Assembly: GCA_965207065.1 (NCBI GenBank)
Contig: OZ242260.1
Location: forward strand, 224,001-288,000
Source of the DNA: a bacterium
GTDB lineage: Bacteria; UBA8248
Direction of reading: 5' to 3'
Length of the DNA stretch: 64,000 nucleotides
The position numbers and the translations under genes were made by a program. The notes beneath the pieces were generated by a model. It was given only the letters and a program-made list of their open reading frames with translations, was not told where the DNA came from and did not search any database. Shown here in pieces: positions 48,216-56,793 of this stretch (positions are counted from its first letter, which is position 1; every line of letters starts with the position of its first letter).

Positions 48216-49892
48216 TCAAAAATCATCCCCCGAGAATTCAGGCCGCTCCCGTAATATCGCCTTGATGTCCTCTCGCTTGTGTTTGCGCGTGGTGGTTCTG
48301 GGCAACTCCTCCTCGGGCCAGAGGAAAAAACCGGCCACTCTCTTGTAATCCGCAAGGTGCGCGCTCAGGCGCTTGAGTTCCGTATCTGCCAGAGTCGTTC
48401 GCTCTTCGTCTTCTTGCGGCAAATCGGTTTCGGGGTCGAGCACCACGACGGCGAACACCTCCTCGCCACCGCGAGGCGTTTTCCTGCCGATGACGCATAC
48501 ATCCTGGAACCATGCACTCTCGAGAAGCTGCTCCTCTACCTCTTCGGGATAAATGTTTTTGCCCGCCTCGGAGACGATGACGTTCTTGGACCGGCCGCAT
48601 ATCGTGAGATAGCCGTCCGAGTCGATACGGCCGATGTCTCCGGTATGAAACCATCCATCCCGCAAGACCTCCGCCGTGAGATCGGGATTCTCGAAATAGC
48701 CCTGCATCACGTTTGGACCCCGTATCAGTATTTCACCCTCTCCCTCGTCCGCACCCTCTACAGGTACGAGCCTCGCTTCCACCCCCGGAATCGGCGGGCC
48801 GACGGTTCCGATTCTATTTTGCGCTCCCGGCGGAGTCGCATGGGCGACGGGAGAGGTTTCCGTCAAGCCATATCCCTGGACCACCTCGATTCCCAGGATG
48901 AGCAAATCTCGAGCGATTTTGGGGTCGAGCGCGGCCCCTCCGCTAGCGAAATAGCGCAGATTCGGACCAAGATTCTTCTTCACCTGGGAAAACAGCAGAT
49001 GACCGACGCGAATACCCATCGACAGGCATATCCTGGAAATCCCGAAAAGAGTCTTGAAGACGAGTTTTTTCGCTCCGCTCAGTGATTCCACGTTCGACAT
49101 GATCCGCTTGTGGATGAGCCGCGCAAGCGCTGGCACCATCAGGCAGATGGTAATGCCCTCGTTTTGCATGGCCTCGACGAGGAGCCGCGGGTTCAGGGAA
49201 GAAAGGTAATGCACGCGGGCGCCCGCCCCCAGCGGTATCAGGAAACCGCCCGTACTCTCGAACATGTGGTGAAGCGGCAGAACCGAGAGAAAAACGTCAC
49301 CCTCCCTGGCGAGGAATGTCTGGAGAACTGCGCGCACATTGGAAGTGATGTTCCCATGAGAGAGCATCACGCCCTTGGGTGTACCCGTCGTCCCCGATGA
49401 AAACGACACCAGCGCTAGATCGTCCAGACCGCGCTCCGCACCCGGCAGTGCATCCAGCGATACAGCGGAGTCAGGCTCTCTCTCCTCATCGATGCGCAAT
49501 ACTGCGCAGGTCGATTCGAGACCGACCGCAAGCGCTTCGGCACGTTCCTCTTCACGGGAATCCGTCACAAGGCAAACGGGCTTGGCTTTTTCCATAATGT
49601 TCGCGAGTTCACCCTCTTTCAAATTCACGTCCAGAGGCACGAGAACGCCGCCGGCGAGCAGCGCCCCGAAATATCCCACCCCCCATTCGGGTTGATTCGG
49701 CGCCAGCTGTGCGACAAAATCTCCCGGCTTCACGCCCGCATCTATCAACTCGCTCGCCAGGGCGGCTGCTTTTCCGCACAACTCCTTTCTGGTGAGCGTC
49801 ACTCGGCCGCGTCCTTCTACGTCTCCTTCCAAGGCGATCGAATCGGGAAATTTCGCAGTTGTCTCTTTCAGGAGATCGATCAAGGTATCCAT
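48216..49892 (-). CDS. Long-chain acyl-CoA synthetase / AMP-binding protein
   Basis: FSSGTTGTPKG, QGYGLTET, FHTGD and GR.KN.I motifs. Confidence 0.9.
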   Translation of the reverse strand: MDTLIDLLKETTAKFPDSIALEGDVEGRGRVTLTRKELCGKAAALASELIDAGVKPGDFVAQLAPNQPEWGVGYFGALLAGGVLVPLDVNLKEGELANIMEKAKPVCLVTDSREEERAEALAVGLESTCAVLRIDEEREPDSAVSLDALPGAERGLDDLALVSFSSGTTGTPKGVMLSHGNITSNVRAVLQTFLAREGDVFLSVLPLHHMFESTGGFLIPLGAGARVHYLSSLNPRLLVEAMQNEGITICLMVPALARLIHKRIMSNVESLSGAKKLVFKTLFGISRICLSMGIRVGHLLFSQVKKNLGPNLRYFASGGAALDPKIARDLLILGIEVVQGYGLTETSPVAHATPPGAQNRIGTVGPPIPGVEARLVPVEGADEGEGEILIRGPNVMQGYFENPDLTAEVLRDGWFHTGDIGRIDSDGYLTICGRSKNVIVSEAGKNIYPEEVEEQLLESAWFQDVCVIGRKTPRGGEEVFAVVVLDPETDLPQEDEERTTLADTELKRLSAHLADYKRVAGFFLWPEEELPRTTTRKHKREDIKAILRERPEFSGDDF

Positions 49893-49978: not shown

Positions 49979-50770
49979 CTAGATCAGCCGCTTTCTGACC
50001 TGCCATGCAGCGAATTCACCCGCGAAAACCAGGGCGATGATCGCCAGCACCAGCACGCCTGATTTTTGCCACTGAAACTGCTTCACGTACAAGAACACGT
50101 AAAACCCCAAGCCCCCCGCCCCGACAAGACCCAGAATCGTGGAATCGCGCAGATTCATCTCGAAACGTATGGCCAGATGTGCAACCATCTGCGGCAATAC
50201 CTGGGGAATGAGGCCGTGTTGAATGATCTGGAGAGAAGATGCGCCCGTGCCCTGCAATGCGAGTAAGGGTTTCGGGTCGGTCGCCTCGATTTCCTCCGCC
50301 ACGAACCGCCCGAGCACGCCGACGGAGTGCACCGCCAGCGCCAATACCCCCGGAAATGGGCCGAGCCCCACGGCGGAGACGAACAACAATGCGAGCAACA
50401 GTAAGGGGATGGAACGGACGAACGCCATGAACGCCTTGATGGGCAGATGCACCCAGACCGGCGTCCAGTTCGACGCCGCGAGCACGCCCAGCGGATAGGC
50501 GAACAAAGCACCCAGAAAAGTACCCGCAATGGTGGTTTGCAGCGTTTCGACAGCCGAGGTCAGTAAAACATCCCAGACCGACCAATCCGGCGGCGTCATC
50601 CGGCCAAAGAAGTGAAACAGTTGTGGAATCCCGCGCCAGAATTGCCCGGGTGAAAACTCAGAACCCTGAAAAGACCAGAATAAGAGTGCGCTAACTGCCA
50701 GGAAGAGGCTGACCTTGCCAGCCATACGGCCAGGTAAAAGCGCTTCTGCTTGCTCTCGTTCCGTTCCCAT
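49979..50770 (-). CDS. phnE: Phosphonate-type ABC transporter permease
   Basis: RSIP, VGLGPFPG, AEEIE, RFEMNLRDSTILGLVGAGGLG motifs. Confidence 0.9.
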   Translation of the reverse strand: MGTEREQAEALLPGRMAGKVSLFLAVSALLFWSFQGSEFSPGQFWRGIPQLFHFFGRMTPPDWSVWDVLLTSAVETLQTTIAGTFLGALFAYPLGVLAASNWTPVWVHLPIKAFMAFVRSIPLLLLALLFVSAVGLGPFPGVLALAVHSVGVLGRFVAEEIEATDPKPLLALQGTGASSLQIIQHGLIPQVLPQMVAHLAIRFEMNLRDSTILGLVGAGGLGFYVFLYVKQFQWQKSGVLVLAIIALVFAGEFAAWQVRKRLI

Positions 50771-51536
50771 TCACGACTCCGTTTGTTCCCATGAACTCGT
50801 AGATTTCACATATCCTATCATTCGAGAGTGAATCCGAAGAACCATCCCACATGATTTTTCCGTTTTTCATCGCCAGGATTCTATCTGCATACTTTCGCGC
50901 AATTTCGGGGAGGTGGAGACTCATCATGAGCGTGAGTTCGTAGGCGTCGCAAACCGACACGAGGAGATCCATGATGTCCTCGGACAATGCGGGGTCCAGG
51001 CTCGATACAGGTTCATCAGCGAGCAGAATTGTCGGCTCCTGCGCCAATGCCCGGGCGATGGCGACGCGCTGCTGTTCCCCGCCGGAGAGCGTGCGGGCGA
51101 AGCGGCGTTGCTTGTCATCGAGATGCACCTCCTGAATTGCCTGTGCGCAGATTTGCAAATCGCGCTGCGAGCAGATTCCCAACATGCTTTTCACTAACGA
51201 CACATAACCGAGCCTTCCGTGGTAGACGTTTTGCCAGACGGTTTCCCGGCCTATCAGGTCGAAATGCTGATGAATCATACCGATATGGCGATGATGGGTT
51301 TTCATCTTTTTGGGATCCTTGATCGGGAAAACATCCCCCATCACGACCACCTTCCCCTTCTGGCAAGGCACATAGCCCTTCAGCATCCGCATGAGGGTCG
51401 TCTTGCCGGAACCACTGTTGCCGACAATAGCCACTCTCTCCCCACGAGAGACCTCGAGTTGATCGACGGAAAGAATCGTCCGCCCCTCCATCTCCACACG
51501 CGCATTTTCGATTTGGATGACCATTTCTTTCGACAT
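50691..51536 (-). CDS. phnC: Phosphonate-type ABC transporter ATPase
   Basis: [41 protein letters not shown] and SLH motifs. Confidence 0.9.
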
Positions 51537-51540
51537 TTTC

Positions 51541-52464
51541 CTATTCCTTCAAAAAACCATACTTTCGGGCCATATCGGCCACCGGCTTATATCGGTTGTG
51601 GTTGACCCTCACGTAACCATCCGTTCCGTAAAGAGCCCGTATCAAGCTACGATTCGCAGGCCGGTTCATCTTCATCATCGCCGCGATGAATTTTCGCCTG
51701 ATTTCAGGCTCCAACCCTTTGCGCACCACTACGTTGTGGCTGGGAATTCTGGCCGATTGCGCGATGGCGACAACTTGATCGCGCTGATCGGGACGAAGGA
51801 GATTGAGCGCATATTGGCTTACTCCGGCGGCGTTGACGAAACCACCAACCACTGAGTTGACCGCCTGCTGATCCCCGCCTGCGAAATAAACTCTTCGGAA
51901 AAACTTGCCCTCAGGCTTTTCCACTCCCCCGTTTACAAGACCGGCACGAACAAAAATGTCTTGAGGGTACATAAAACCCGAACTCGAAATGGGGTCGACA
52001 TAGGCGATAGTCCTACCCTTCAGATCGGAGATCTTCTTGATGCCGCTGTCCTTGCGAACGAAAATCCTCGAATAGTAGTAAGGTTTTCCGTCGTATATCT
52101 CCCCAAGAACCGCCTCGACTCCCGAATACTTGTTCGCCAGGACATAAGGTAGCGGAGACATAAAGCTCACATCGGCATTTTTCGAAATCATGGCCTCTAC
52201 GGCGGCCGAGTAATTCAAGGTGATGAAATAGCGGACCTTGCGCCCCATCTCTTTTTCCAGAAAATTCATCGCCGGTTTCACGTTGTTGATGAGTTTCTCG
52301 GGATTCTCGAGCGGAATGAACGCAACCCGAAGCTCCCTTTCGGCCGCGCGAACGGGAACCGGAGCGAACAAGAACGTGGAGAAAACGAGGAGAATCGCCA
52401 CTGGCAGAAACAACCCCGGCGCTTTTGTCGATAATACTCGGATGAAACGCATGACTCTGCTCAT
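51541..52464 (-). CDS. phnD: PhnD / PtxB-like substrate-binding protein
   Basis: Signal peptide; YSAAVEAM, DLKGRTIAYVDPISSSGFMYP and FAGGD motifs. Confidence 0.85.
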   Translation of the reverse strand: MSRVMRFIRVLSTKAPGLFLPVAILLVFSTFLFAPVPVRAAERELRVAFIPLENPEKLINNVKPAMNFLEKEMGRKVRYFITLNYSAAVEAMISKNADVSFMSPLPYVLANKYSGVEAVLGEIYDGKPYYYSRIFVRKDSGIKKISDLKGRTIAYVDPISSSGFMYPQDIFVRAGLVNGGVEKPEGKFFRRVYFAGGDQQAVNSVVGGFVNAAGVSQYALNLLRPDQRDQVVAIAQSARIPSHNVVVRKGLEPEIRRKFIAAMMKMNRPANRSLIRALYGTDGYVRVNHNRYKPVADMARKYGFLKE

Positions 52465-54419
52465 TTTAGTTTGTCCTGGTTTTTCTGATATAGCGCGTGA
52501 TATGCCGCGATTTTGTCCTCGGTCATCTTTGGGTCACCCGCGAGATGCGCCCTCAAGGCCTCATTCAGTTTCTCTTCCATCTTATTGAGAACCGGCATAT
52601 TTTCCTTGTCCTGAACATCCCATTTGTGGGCCTGCACTTCACGAATCACCGTTTTCAACAAGACGGTGATCAACTCTTTTTTCTTTCTCTGCTTCAATCG
52701 CTCATAGGTGGAGAGGAAAAATTTGAACTCCTCCAACTCCGACTCCAGCGTGTAAACTGTATTTTCAATCCCCTGGACGCCATCACCAACGGCTTCGAGG
52801 TAGGCGGTGAGGTCGTCGATGTCCTTTCGTTCCAATCCCAGTTTGAATTGCCTGTTGAACCATTCGTTCACGGCCCGCAGTGTAGGCAGGCTGCCGTCGT
52901 GGAAATACGGGGGCGTGAATTTCGATGAGAGCAGGGTGGGCGTATCCATACCGCCTACGTGAAACAGCCGGCTCGCGCCCGTGGAACCGATGTCATGCCG
53001 CTTGTGGTCCACGAAGTTCGCATTTGGAATGTGACAACTCGCGCAACTCATGCCGCCCATCATCTGGGGGAATTTCCGGTGAAAAATTTTCTCGCCACGC
53101 AACGCCGCCCGGGAAACTTTCTCGAGGTTGAGTCTCCCGCTCTTTTTGAGTTTCGGGTTCGGCAAGAACTCGAACTCGTTCATGTAGGCGATCATGCCGT
53201 CCAAGATCATCGGGTCGGGTTCAGGCCCGTTGAACTCGTTCACGATGACGTTGCGCACGAATTCCCTGAGTGAGGCGAAACGGCCGTTTCTACCGTATGG
53301 GGCAGTGAAGCGAATGCCCCGCAAGTCGGGCGTGTCCAGCGGATCATGAAGACCGTTGTTGGCGTGGCCTGCGAAGAAACTGTTCGACACGTCCATGCCG
53401 CCTTTTTCCCGGGAAAGACCGGGGATGAAAAGTTCGGGATTCGTCACGCCCTTGTTGTGGCAAGTGTTGCAACTCATCCCCAAGGTGCGCGCGGGTTCGC
53501 CGAAAATCTCTGCGCTGTCGAAAGCCATATCCCCAAAAGCGATGAGAAAGGTTTCCGCCTCGTTGACACCGCGCTCCGCCATTCCGAGAATCTGTCTCGG
53601 ACGCGGGAGTTGTTTGTTGATGTTGGAACCCGGCGGCAGGCGCCAAGGTACGTGCGCGGTTTCGGTATATGTTTCGCTCCCCTTGGGTCGGGGCAGGAGC
53701 CTGTGTTCTATTCCGGCCTGAAACTCGGAGAAATTCACATGTATATACCCGCGGATGAATGAGATGCTCTCGCGGATTTTTTCGATATTCATCGGCTTTG
53801 CGCCGATTCCCATCACTCCGGCGGCTCCCATATGGGAACTCGCTTCGAGCCAATGGATTTGCATCTTTTTCCAAGCCTTGGGATCCAGATACGGCAAAGT
53901 CCCGGCGAAAGCCTGGGAGATTCTTCGCGCTTGGCTCAGACGCTTTTTGACCTCGGCTCTGTCCGAGTCCGCCTTGATCGCGTCCAGATGCGAGATTATG
54001 AGCGAGGCGACTCCCCGCGTGGCCAGGGAAAATACCAACCGGCTCCCATTTTTTCGCGCAGCGACCAAATCCGGTTCTTTATCGCCACTCGCCACGGGCT
54101 GAGCAACGCGCTTGGCAATGGCCAACTCTTCCGGGAACTTCTTGGAGCCAGGAGAATTAACTCCATACAGCGCTTCTTCGATATGTTTCAAATCTGACCA
54201 TACCTGTGGCCAGAGCACAGGATTCAGATTCAAGATGAAACTGGCGCGACGATAGCTTTCGGCAACGGGGTGTAATTCCTCAGGAGGGACGATGTGTGCC
54301 GAAGCGGGGTAGGAACTCATCAAGAACAACCCGGTAGCCAGAAGCCACGCCGGTTTCGTCAAAAAGTTTCTCACACGCAGAGCAAGTCTCGCCCCGGGCG
54401 CTTTGATGCTGCATATCAT
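52461..54419 (-). CDS. Exported di-heme cytochrome c peroxidase / MauG-like protein with large uncharacterised N- and C-terminal helical extensions
   Basis: Signal peptide ending ASA|HIVPP; two CxxCH motifs (CNTCH, CASCH); TPDLRG..TAPY and TPTLL..TPPYFHDGS. Confidence 0.8.
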   Translation of the reverse strand: MICSIKAPGARLALRVRNFLTKPAWLLATGLFLMSSYPASAHIVPPEELHPVAESYRRASFILNLNPVLWPQVWSDLKHIEEALYGVNSPGSKKFPEELAIAKRVAQPVASGDKEPDLVAARKNGSRLVFSLATRGVASLIISHLDAIKADSDRAEVKKRLSQARRISQAFAGTLPYLDPKAWKKMQIHWLEASSHMGAAGVMGIGAKPMNIEKIRESISFIRGYIHVNFSEFQAGIEHRLLPRPKGSETYTETAHVPWRLPPGSNINKQLPRPRQILGMAERGVNEAETFLIAFGDMAFDSAEIFGEPARTLGMSCNTCHNKGVTNPELFIPGLSREKGGMDVSNSFFAGHANNGLHDPLDTPDLRGIRFTAPYGRNGRFASLREFVRNVIVNEFNGPEPDPMILDGMIAYMNEFEFLPNPKLKKSGRLNLEKVSRAALRGEKIFHRKFPQMMGGMSCASCHIPNANFVDHKRHDIGSTGASRLFHVGGMDTPTLLSSKFTPPYFHDGSLPTLRAVNEWFNRQFKLGLERKDIDDLTAYLEAVGDGVQGIENTVYTLESELEEFKFFLSTYERLKQRKKKELITVLLKTVIREVQAHKWDVQDKENMPVLNKMEEKLNEALRAHLAGDPKMTEDKIAAYHALYQKNQDKLK

Positions 54420-54454
54420 GATTTCGGTTCCCTATAAAAACCACCAACAAAGCA

Positions 54455-54484
54455 ATTTTATTCGGAAGACAAAAATAAAGTCAA
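54455..54484 (-). promoter_or_regulatory. Putative sigma70 promoter of the di-heme/phnDCE operon
   Basis: Minus strand TTGACT-N18-TAAAAT in an AT-rich stretch. Confidence 0.6.
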
Positions 54485-54501
54485 GTTATACTGAATATAT
54501 T

Positions 54502-54517
54502 TTTAGACTTGCCTAAA
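54502..54517. promoter_or_regulatory. Putative DtxR/MntR/SirR-type metal-regulator box
   Basis: Palindrome TTTAG-ACTTGC-CTAAA. Confidence 0.5.
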
Positions 54518-54758: not shown

Positions 54759-55100
<342 letters not shown>

Positions 55101-55156
55101 TCATTCCTCTCAAGATGACAGATGGACTCATCCGGTAATGTATCCCCTCGCCTGAA

Positions 55157-56548
55157 TCAACCCAATCTCTCGCCTGCATAGGCCTCCATGCCATGCTCCG
55201 AGAGGTCGAGACCTGCCAATTCATCCTCTGCGGAAACGCGCACGCCCATCAGACCTTTCACCACATGCCAAAGGATGAAGGACAAAACGAAGGTAAAGAC
55301 ACCGACCGCGACAACTCCCACTAGTTGTTTGATGAAGAGTCCTGCGCCGCCACCGTAGAACAATCCTACAACGCCGTCGTCTATGGAAGGCGCGGCGAAC
55401 AAACCCAGCGCAAGCGTGCCGAATATCCCGCATACCAAGTGCACAGAAACAGCGCCGACCGGATCGTCAATCTTGATTTTATCGAGAAACGGAATCGCAA
55501 CACAGACGATGAAGCCAGCGATCAGACCGATAATTACTGCCCCCAGTGGAGTAACGTTAGCGCATGGCGCCGTAATGGCGACCAACCCTGCAAGCGCGCC
55601 GTTCACGCTCATGGAAAGATCGGCTTTGCCGAACATGGTGCGCGACGTGATGCTGGAAGCAACTACACCTGCGGCGGCGGCGAGGTTTGTCGTCACGGCG
55701 ATCCGCGCGATAGAGCCCGCATCGGCGGCCATGGTGCTGCCTGGGTTAAAACCGAACCATCCGAGCCACAAGATAAACCCACCCAACGTGACAAGCGGCA
55801 TGTTGTGGCCGGGCATCGCCTGCATTCGGCCGTCGGAGGTGTACTTGCCGAGCCGAGGACCCAGAACGATGATTCCGGCGAGTCCCGCCCAGCCGCCTAC
55901 GGAGTGAACCACTGTGGAACCGGCGAAATCGAGAAAACCCATACCGCCCAACCAGCCGCCACCCCAGATCCAATGGCCCTGGATAGGATAGATAATGGCT
56001 ACAAGCAAGAAGCTGAAGATCATGAACGAGGAAAACTTGATTCGCTCGGCCACACAGCCCGATACGATGGTCGCCGCCGTCGCAGCGAAAACAAGCTGGA
56101 AGAAAAACTTTGCGTATAGCGGTATTCCCGTCCAATTCAGGGATGAGAATACACCTTTGTACGCGTCACCCGTGGCCGGGCTGTTGTCAGCCCCCGAGAT
56201 GAAAAACCCGTTCGTTCCCGATATAGAGCTGCCATCTCCAAACATGAGGGCGAAACCCAATATCCAGAATGCCAGGGACGAGACGGCGACGACGCCGAAA
56301 TTCTTATAGAGAATGGCGACGGTGTTCTTGGCCCGGCAAAGCCCCGATTCGAGCATCGCAAAGCCTGCGTGCATGAAAAACACCAGAAACCCGGCCACCA
56401 TCACCCAAACAGTATCCGCCGCGACTCGTAAATCCGCCAGGCTCTTCGCCATGGCCTTGACATCCTGTGCCCAACCGCTGCCGGTAAAGGATAAAACCCC
56501 CACGGCGAAGACCAACACCGCCGCAATGTAGAGTCCCCTTCTTCTCAT
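55157..56548 (-). CDS. amtB: Ammonium transporter
   Basis: FFQLVFA, DFAGSTVVH, WFGFNPGS and DDPVGAVSVH motifs; start at ATG 56548 (GGAGG RBS). Confidence 0.95.
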   Translation of the reverse strand: MRRRGLYIAAVLVFAVGVLSFTGSGWAQDVKAMAKSLADLRVAADTVWVMVAGFLVFFMHAGFAMLESGLCRAKNTVAILYKNFGVVAVSSLAFWILGFALMFGDGSSISGTNGFFISGADNSPATGDAYKGVFSSLNWTGIPLYAKFFFQLVFAATAATIVSGCVAERIKFSSFMIFSFLLVAIIYPIQGHWIWGGGWLGGMGFLDFAGSTVVHSVGGWAGLAGIIVLGPRLGKYTSDGRMQAMPGHNMPLVTLGGFILWLGWFGFNPGSTMAADAGSIARIAVTTNLAAAAGVVASSITSRTMFGKADLSMSVNGALAGLVAITAPCANVTPLGAVIIGLIAGFIVCVAIPFLDKIKIDDPVGAVSVHLVCGIFGTLALGLFAAPSIDDGVVGLFYGGGAGLFIKQLVGVVAVGVFTFVLSFILWHVVKGLMGVRVSAEDELAGLDLSEHGMEAYAGERLG

Positions 56549-56793
56549 GCCCCTTCCTCCGATACGTTTTAGATATTCCGAGAGTTTAGGTATACGAAGC
56601 ATCATTTACATCTTTTAGGTGAGAAGTATTTCAAAATCGTTTCGACCGTATTACCCGAACGTTAATTGCACCTTCCCGGCAACTATCCGCTTCAGTTTGA
56701 CAGGCGATATCGAGCGTGTTAGCAATTCCGCCAATTCGATTAAAAACTTCTGAACAAGCCATTTTCCGGGATCAATCCACTAAAGGAGAAACA

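Follow-up and report, generated by a model that had tools for sequence, protein, structure and literature searches.

MbnH modifies MbnP in a copper-uptake operon, and enterobacteria co-regulate manganese import and peroxide defence; to our knowledge, no described manganese importer includes a redox enzyme. According to PMC3143127, the arrangement of imelysin, di-haem peroxidase and Ftr1 is the context of oxidase-dependent iron uptake. For the phosphite-binding protein PtxB, PMC5700983 describes a site with an S-T-S plus His motif, a capping Tyr208 and a partner Asp22, in which His160 holds the third ligand oxygen. Here we analyse a 64,000-nucleotide stretch of contig OZ242260.1 from a UBA8248 bacterium (hereafter the window), in which the gene of an exported di-haem protein, here called the haem protein, is followed by genes for a PhnD-fold periplasmic binding protein, a PhnC-like ATP-binding cassette (ABC) ATPase and a PhnE-type permease. 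Literature searches returned no paper that describes this cassette or links its parts. We find that the haem protein belongs with the PhnDCE-like importer in a single conserved unit, linked beyond chance, and we propose that the cassette is probably an undescribed system of redox-assisted metal uptake rather than a phosphonate transporter.

Linkage of the di-haem gene to the importer genes

The haem gene (52461..54419; this and all other genes of the cassette lie on the minus strand) encodes an exported protein of 652 amino acids (aa), which comprises a leader (residues 1-41), a helical N-domain (42-262), a di-haem core of the CCP/MauG superfamily (approximately 263-550) and a four-helix C-tail (551-652). 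Its two haem motifs, C317-N-T-C-H321 (53457..53471, minus strand) and C459-A-S-C-H463 (53031..53045, minus strand; in the region of the Pfam CCP_MauG match), are shared without exception by all 88 aligned relatives, and both the reading frame and the motifs are as claimed in an earlier note made from this DNA alone. The coordinates likewise confirm the tight spacing described there. The stop codon of the haem gene overlaps the start codon of phnD in an ATGA at 52464-52461; phnD (51541..52464; 307 aa; PF12974, 193 bits) stops 4 nt before the start of phnC (50691..51536; 281 aa; PF00005 match; TIGR02315, 237.7 bits); and phnE (49979..50770; 263 aa as listed; TIGR01097, 266.8 bits) overlaps phnC by 80 nt (50691-50770) in its listed form. 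An identical overlap was computed in related loci, and the explanation is either a more distal start of phnE or a PhnC tail of about 30 aa that is read across the phnE start.

In contigs from one genome per species we found 80 loci with the haem protein, from at least seven phyla; the groups represented include Nitrospinota, Planctomycetota, Verrucomicrobiota/Opitutales, Acidobacteriota, Sumerlaeota, Hydrogenedentota and Oligoflexia, among others. The haem gene is followed by phnD in 79 of the 80 loci, by phnC in 76 and by phnE in 75, and in four of the five incomplete loci the contig ends ahead of the missing gene. With start codons placed heuristically, the 4-nt ATGA overlap of haem gene and phnD is not confined to one phylum and is seen in 38 of the 74 loci compared. 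An independent scan of metagenome contigs found phnD in every one of 40 long-form loci whose downstream sequence extends for 900 nt or more, and in none of 17 loci that have 1200 nt or more downstream and encode a core-only relative of approximately 430-480 aa; the N- and C-domains are confined to the phnD-linked form. The earlier note had named homologues unlinked to phnDCE as the observation that would speak against its coupling of haem gene and importer; in both surveys the homologues proved to be linked. Homologues of the haem protein with a length of about 640 aa number more than 1000, and within the window's own phylum the haem protein is present in 31 of 51 genomes examined, including all 23 of the window's genus.

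The core-only relatives are 40-50% identical to the haem protein over the core. An imelysin gene lies directly upstream in 13 of 28 core-only loci and an FTR1 permease gene adjoins in five of the 28, and because of these neighbours we consider that this di-haem sub-family works with metal importers elsewhere too. Clusters of an imelysin gene with the di-haem gene, sometimes joined by FTR1, occur among the metagenome loci L094-L112, L125 and L168, and in L096 a PPK2 polyphosphate kinase gene stands next to the imelysin/di-haem cluster.

Regulators, binding protein and haem protein

Using tblastn, we observed a gene for a DtxR-family repressor in the flank of 25 of the 80 genome loci, mostly less than 200 bp from the start of the haem gene or the end of phnE; 25 of 52 long-form metagenome loci also have one. 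We compared 22 of the 25 genomic regulators with the NCBIfam models, and every one of the 22 has its top score on an MntR model. Glu occupies the position of Glu99 in 21 of them, while the position of Asp8 is Asp in 13 and Asn in eight; these two residues are given as MntR-family markers in PMC6860424. A Pfam scan of 53 flanking open reading frames from 18 diverse loci returned DtxR-family genes in seven loci, a PF13557 outer-membrane barrel in six, and a Fur-family gene, FeoB, a TonB-dependent receptor and an OprB porin in one each, with no Pho or phosphonate-catabolic gene among the 53. When all 80 loci were searched with tblastn, the PF13557 barrel was adjacent in 20 and an OprB porin in four, and in one locus (L060) the barrel gene lies between the haem gene and phnD.

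The promoter region of the window carries a 16-bp operator-like palindrome (54502..54517), TTTAGGCAAGTCTAAA on the minus strand, located 18 bp upstream of the -35 hexamer of a sigma-70-like promoter (54455..54484, minus strand; TTGACT, 18 nt, TAAAAT), which is recognised by its consensus match alone (10 of 12 positions). Related loci conserve both the TTGACT block and the AATAAAAT block, and a second, weaker promoter-like site has the palindrome inside its spacer. TTTAG-N6-CTAAA recurs at the equivalent position upstream of the haem gene in most of the loci nearest to the window. It occurs once in the 4.48-Mb genome, with no other site within two mismatches of the consensus, and a regulon is therefore of no help in naming the metal. 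The core of the window's palindrome, TAGG-N4-TCTA, resembles TAGC-N4-GCTA, the core of the enterobacterial MntR box (PMC1698941), and in other phyla TAGC-N4-GCTA boxes that match this MntR core lie upstream of the haem gene. We retain the palindrome, which the earlier note had called metal-regulator-like, as a putative operator. That note had listed a metal among several conceivable substrates; this suggestion is favoured by the MntR-type repressor genes elsewhere and by the conserved palindrome, whereas direct adjacency of such a gene is missing in the window's lineage. A second operator type, TTTTGA-N4-6-TCAAAA, is found beside a TTGAC -35 box, on one side of that box or the other, in loci of Acidobacteriota, Opitutales and Planctomycetota (L026, L028-L030, L034, L037, L040, L041, L043, L049-L051, L058, L063 and L069); in Acidobacteriota and Opitutales it overlaps the promoter. 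An Rfam scan of the window detected one tRNA only and no riboswitch.

The phnD product reaches the cut-off of the TIGR01098 subfamily (182.6 versus 112.05 bits) and misses that of the PhnD equivalog TIGR03431 (178.4 versus 261.1 bits), and the phnC product stays below the cut-off of TIGR02315 (266.1 bits). The earlier note had also considered a selenium oxyanion, to be recognised through the putative selenate-binding family; the match to that family, TIGR04553, scores 81.9 bits against a cut-off of 250 and does not support this substrate. The best solved relative of the binding protein is the phosphite-binding PtxB (1.3e-27), followed by ArrX, HtxB, AioX and E. coli PhnD. Aligning the binding protein by HMMER to 5lv1 (Te_PtxB), with residue roles taken from PMC5700983, we observed that His160 is replaced by Gly197, the capping Tyr208 by His243 and Asp22 by Leu52. 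The equivalent of Asp22 is Leu or Tyr, and the capping position is Asp205 in E. coli PhnD. Tyr55 and Tyr100 of Te_PtxB are retained, and the S-T-S motif reads S-S-S in the window and D-M-S in a sub-clade of 15 of 77 orthologues. All 77 orthologues have Gly197 and His243, and likewise Gly196, Glu122, Tyr124 and Tyr279; the protein has four invariant Tyr in all. Judged from its sequence, the binding protein belongs to the PhnD superfamily and has a pocket unlike any characterised one, in which the new His, Glu and Tyr may hold a metal beside a retained oxyanion. Because the equivalog cut-off is missed and the His and cap residues of PtxB and PhnD are replaced, the phosphonate label is doubtful, as the earlier note had suspected.

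The leader of the haem protein ends in A-S-A, and the -3/-1 rule, read by eye, places a putative mature N-terminus at His42 (HIVPPEELH). The earlier note had predicted an N-terminal His, and conservation agrees: of 72 orthologues, 68 have His at this position and four have Asp, and Glu47 and His50 are, like His42, invariant or nearly so among the aligned orthologues. The Pfam family PF03150 (CCP_MauG) gives a partial match only, over residues 442-516 (47.7 bits; cut-off 25.6), and the curated peroxidase model NF040606 (CytoC_perox) is not reached (19.7 versus 150 bits). The best curated-family matches of the core all fall far below their cut-offs, namely MbnH (TIGR04039, 47.5 versus 362.85 bits), a MauG-like family (31.4 versus 340) and MauG (TIGR03791, 28.7 versus 443.85). 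Solved relatives appear at weak E-values only, and comprise YhjA, the hydrazine synthase gamma subunit, a di-haem enzyme and bacterial cytochrome c peroxidases (bCcPs); bCcPs are also the best Foldseek matches of the core, at weak E-values of 0.02-0.3 obtained with a low-confidence core model as the query. In an alignment to 9qdt, the Met of its K-L-M-L stretch, which we take to be the axial ligand of the electron-transfer haem, falls opposite the invariant Trp520 of the haem protein.

AlphaFold2 predicts the N-domain confidently as an all-helical, two-lobed structure (pLDDT, the predicted local distance difference test score, of 93.9) and residues 551-652 as a four-helix bundle, and residues 42-262 have no Pfam match, in agreement with the unrecognised N-domain and helical C-tail of the earlier note. 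In the full-length model the core is poorly predicted without haem (pLDDT 66.9), for which reason we did not take haem ligands from it. A Foldseek search of the N-domain and a VIA-align search over 48,161 chains found generic helical bundles only (best Z 7.4), and a search of the ESM Atlas gave no usable match. EfeO, EfeM and Algp7 match the N-domain with Foldseek E-values of 1.1-2.2 only and with VIA-align Z-scores of 5.0, 4.9 and 4.7, under those of the generic bundles. A fused imelysin was considered for the N-domain and gained no support from hhalign comparison with ten imelysins from related loci (probability 0.09%). The C-tail matches four-helix bundles (b562 fusions and PsbQ) at Z 12-13, which is within the background for helical bundles, and no specific structural relative was found among these matches. 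On the predicted bundle of the C-tail (52464-52769), Glu561, Glu564, Glu594, His598 and Trp600 are invariant and Glu563, Lys599, Tyr640 and Tyr644 nearly so; on this model, the conserved residues could form a carboxylate/His metal site.

The earlier note had seen no C-P lyase gene in the window, and this absence extends to the whole genome, where no PhnJ is encoded in 4.48 Mb (ptxD was not searched for genome-wide). The genome has no PhnE-type gene besides that of the cassette. Three positions (G000:C1:1265416, 2305697 and 4437056) have identical weak scores on the PhnE model and open frames of 312 aa, which suggests that a permease gene or a repeated element is present in triplicate. Two MntR-like genes (L089 and L090) lie elsewhere in the genome and not beside the cassette, and L089 resembles the cassette-adjacent regulators of L016, L018 and L019. 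We found no Nramp gene in the genome, and its two ZnuA-family binding proteins are both of the zinc type, encoded beside Zur and ZnuC. Given that an MntR-type regulator is present without a recognisable manganese importer (ZIP transporters and P-type ATPases were not searched for), the cassette is the best candidate for that role.

On the downstream side of the cassette, an acyl-CoA ligase gene (48216..49892, minus strand) starts 86 bp past phnE, with a weak terminator-like hairpin between the two (49943-49928). The earlier note had allowed that the ligase might belong to the operon. It adjoins the cassette in only 23 of the 80 loci, each from a Nitrospinota-type relative of the window whose haem protein is at least 61% identical, and since the adjacency is limited to the window's own lineage we place the ligase outside the conserved unit. 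Directly upstream lie amt (482 aa) and glnB (112 aa; together 54759-56605, minus strand), a synteny shared by 20 of the 80 loci, and a terminator-like hairpin separates the amt/glnB side from the promoter of the haem gene. Two metatranscriptome runs of one study contain near-identical fragments of the four cassette genes and the ligase, which bear on neither transcription units nor strand nor level. In the same two runs a fragment of about 85 nt, flanked by adapters, covers 51490-51578, from the phnD stop to the phnC start, at a contig depth above 100, other operon pieces having depths of 3-13; no stable fold was detected in 51490-51578 (z +1.68).

A candidate route for manganese and its rivals

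Drawing on observations made here, namely how the genes are linked, which regulators and outer-membrane channels are encoded nearby, how the residues of the binding protein have changed and that the genome lacks the usual manganese importers and C-P lyase, we hypothesize that the cassette is a manganese (or iron) acquisition system, in which the haem protein would redox-process the metal before import and a DtxR/MntR-family repressor would act through the palindrome at 54502-54517. This hypothesis has in our estimation about an even chance of being correct; when its manganese-leaning form and its iron version are counted together, a role in metal acquisition is likely. With a metal as the inferred substrate, manganese is a slightly better than even choice, iron a weaker candidate and any other metal improbable. 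Given a redox role, oxidation is modestly favoured and reduction somewhat less probable, and we rate oxidation above a reduction of Mn(III/IV) because of the peroxidase ancestry and the Ftr1-type relatives.

In the proposed mechanism, the outer-membrane barrel, where its gene is present, would let the metal species in. The di-haem protein would then alter the redox state of the metal in the periplasm, in the favoured case by oxidation of M(II) to M(III) with oxidising equivalents drawn from peroxide, much as in oxidase-coupled iron uptake, and the conserved residues of its N-terminus (His/Asp1, Glu6 and His9) together with its helical domains would hold the metal. By a presumed hand-off, the translationally coupled PhnD-fold protein would capture the product and may bind the metal with an oxyanion, which is conceivable because the phosph(on)ate His and cap Tyr have given way to Gly-Gly and His while the oxyanion Tyr and Ser are kept. 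PhnE and PhnC would import what is captured, and the metal-sensing DtxR/MntR-family repressor would act at the conserved palindrome. A fully specified version, in which Mn(II) is oxidised in the periplasm and the PhnD-fold site carries the trivalent metal with a synergistic oxyanion to PhnE/PhnC, we put forward only tentatively, as a possibility with the odds against it.

Several observations weigh against a manganese route as proposed. Concerning its regulation, the operator of the window is MntR-like in its core only; 55 of the 80 genome loci are without a regulator in the available flank, many of the flanks being short; and the window's own lineage has no adjacent regulator, amt and glnB standing upstream instead. 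Only four of the 22 regulators (L027, L060, L068 and L071) pass a curated MntR cut-off, and the other 18 are below every cut-off: that of L035 falls short of its cut-off by 0.7 bits, that of L070 is weaker, at 68 bits on an MntR model, and for the remaining ones the Thermus-type MntR model, whose cut-off is 350, gives 152-213 bits and the DtxR model 79-109 bits. Cys occupies the Glu99 position in the regulator of L070 and in the genome's own L090. The linkage, too, has its exceptions. L070 has a regulator gene rather than phnD behind the haem gene, and L122 (3278-5209) encodes a 644-aa paralogue with no phnD in the 4 kb downstream; this paralogue has a different N-terminal part and a pentapeptide-repeat gene upstream. 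An AhpC/TSA peroxiredoxin gene directly upstream of the haem gene in L032 (5154-5681) suits peroxide defence; in this Opitutales locus a gene for a cyclic-nucleotide (cNMP)-binding protein is also found upstream, on the strand of the haem gene. As for the importer, the permease reaches the cut-off of the PhnE equivalog TIGR01097 (216.7 bits), no metal-binding member occurs among the solved relatives listed for the binding protein (PtxB, HtxB, ArrX, AioX, PhnD and others), the oxyanion-binding Tyr85, Tyr130 and Ser162 are retained, and Glu122 and Tyr124 may point away from the pocket if residues 120-132 are read as strand-turn-strand. Finally, the complementarity of Nramp and the cassette rests on two genomes: Nramp occurs in two of the 51 genomes of the phylum, both without the cassette, which is too few to weigh.

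The most credible alternative, unlikely but to be taken seriously, keeps the same architecture with iron as the metal, so that a periplasmic ferroxidase/peroxidase would act as in EfeUOB and the imelysin-Ftr1 systems and the PhnD-fold protein would take Fe(III), perhaps with a synergistic oxyanion. The imelysin and FTR1 genes beside the nearest relatives of the haem core speak for iron, as do the FeoB, TonB-dependent receptor and Fur-family genes, each adjacent in one locus. The DtxR family includes iron sensors, and the Cys at the Glu99 position in L070 and L090 fits with this; the binding protein, for its part, offers invariant Tyr and His, ligands that suit a hard trivalent ion. The regulators point the other way, in that all 22 score higher on the MntR than on the DtxR model and 21 have the Glu99 marker, and it is manganese importers that the genome recognisably lacks (its iron importers were not surveyed).

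We regard it as improbable that the haem protein is a maturase similar to MauG and MbnH, which would oxidatively modify a residue of the binding protein, for example an invariant Tyr, rather than the transported substrate. MbnH with MbnP provides the precedent, MbnH, MauG-like and MauG models are the top curated matches of the core, the translational coupling to phnD recurs across phyla, and the binding protein has its four invariant Tyr; however, none of the three family scores comes near its cut-off, and the genes beside the nearest relatives of the core are those for imelysin and FTR1, not for a modified partner. Less probable again is a haem protein that scavenges or senses peroxide in the periplasm and is merely co-regulated with the importer in a response to oxidative stress and manganese, without chemical coupling. 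Its membership of the CCP superfamily, the peroxiredoxin gene of L032 and the enterobacterial co-regulation of manganese import with peroxide defence would suit such an enzyme, whereas the strict gene order, the overlap of haem gene and phnD across phyla, the restriction of the N- and C-domains to the phnD-linked form and the failed match to the curated di-haem peroxidase model argue for a closer tie. A true importer of reduced phosphorus or phosphonate, with a haem protein that oxidises phosphite or hypophosphite or cleaves phosphonate outside the cell, would accord with PtxB as the best solved relative, the kept oxyanion Tyr and Ser, the PhnE equivalog match and the lack of a cytoplasmic C-P lyase, but is very improbable in view of the loss of all three phosphite-defining residues (His160, Tyr208 and Asp22 in PtxB), a binding protein under the PhnD equivalog cut-off, and flanks in which metal regulators but no Pho-related gene were seen among the 53 reading frames of 18 loci scanned.

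If redox-assisted metal uptake by the cassette is correct, thousands of environmental 'phosphonate ABC transporter' and 'cytochrome c peroxidase' labels are wrong, and inventories of phosphonate cycling based on phnD are inflated. A redox-assisted, binding-protein-dependent route would join the few bacterial importers of manganese and iron, in lineages that include relatives of nitrite-oxidising Nitrospinota, here without Nramp or manganese-type ZnuA-family systems. The cassette would also show the retooling of a phosph(on)ate-binding scaffold and give a testable role to a large uncharacterised CCP/MauG subfamily. Should the Mn(II)-oxidation version hold, it would be the first oxidation-coupled manganese uptake and would give the PhnD family its first metal-binding member; the system would be widespread among Nitrospinota, Planctomycetota, Verrucomicrobiota and Acidobacteriota of marine and sediment habitats.

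Comparison with described systems

Among manganese importers, the cassette shares with MntH/Nramp and with MntABC/SitABCD under MntR the MntR-type repressor genes that are adjacent to it in many lineages. Its binding protein and permease belong to unrelated families, and the genome is without Nramp and without a manganese-type cluster A-I binding protein.

With MauG and MbnH (of the MbnPH copper system), the haem protein has in common the superfamily, the co-encoded periplasmic binding protein and, on the reading proposed here, the setting of metal acquisition. It differs from them in its extra N-domain of 220 aa and C-terminal bundle of 100 aa, and in having as its partner the type II periplasmic binding protein of an ABC importer.

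All three transporter parts of the cassette agree in fold and family with those of PhnCDE, PtxABC and HtxBCDE (TC 3.A.1.9; PMC5700983 and PMC12718374), and Tyr55 and Tyr100 persist along with most of the S-T-S motif. In contrast to those systems, it falls under the equivalog cut-offs for PhnD and PhnC, always has a di-haem gene ahead and is not accompanied by C-P lyase.

With EfeUOB and the imelysin/di-haem peroxidase/Ftr1 systems (PMC3143127), the cassette shares a periplasmic haem redox enzyme encoded with a metal importer, the two being presumed partners, and metal-dependent regulation, which for the cassette is predicted. In contrast to those systems, its importer is a binding-protein-dependent ABC transporter of the PhnCDE type in place of an Ftr1/EfeU permease, an imelysin gene is absent, and the regulators are MntR-like and not Fur. 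The logic of the cassette resembles that of oxidase-coupled iron uptake, while its parts and their combination are new.

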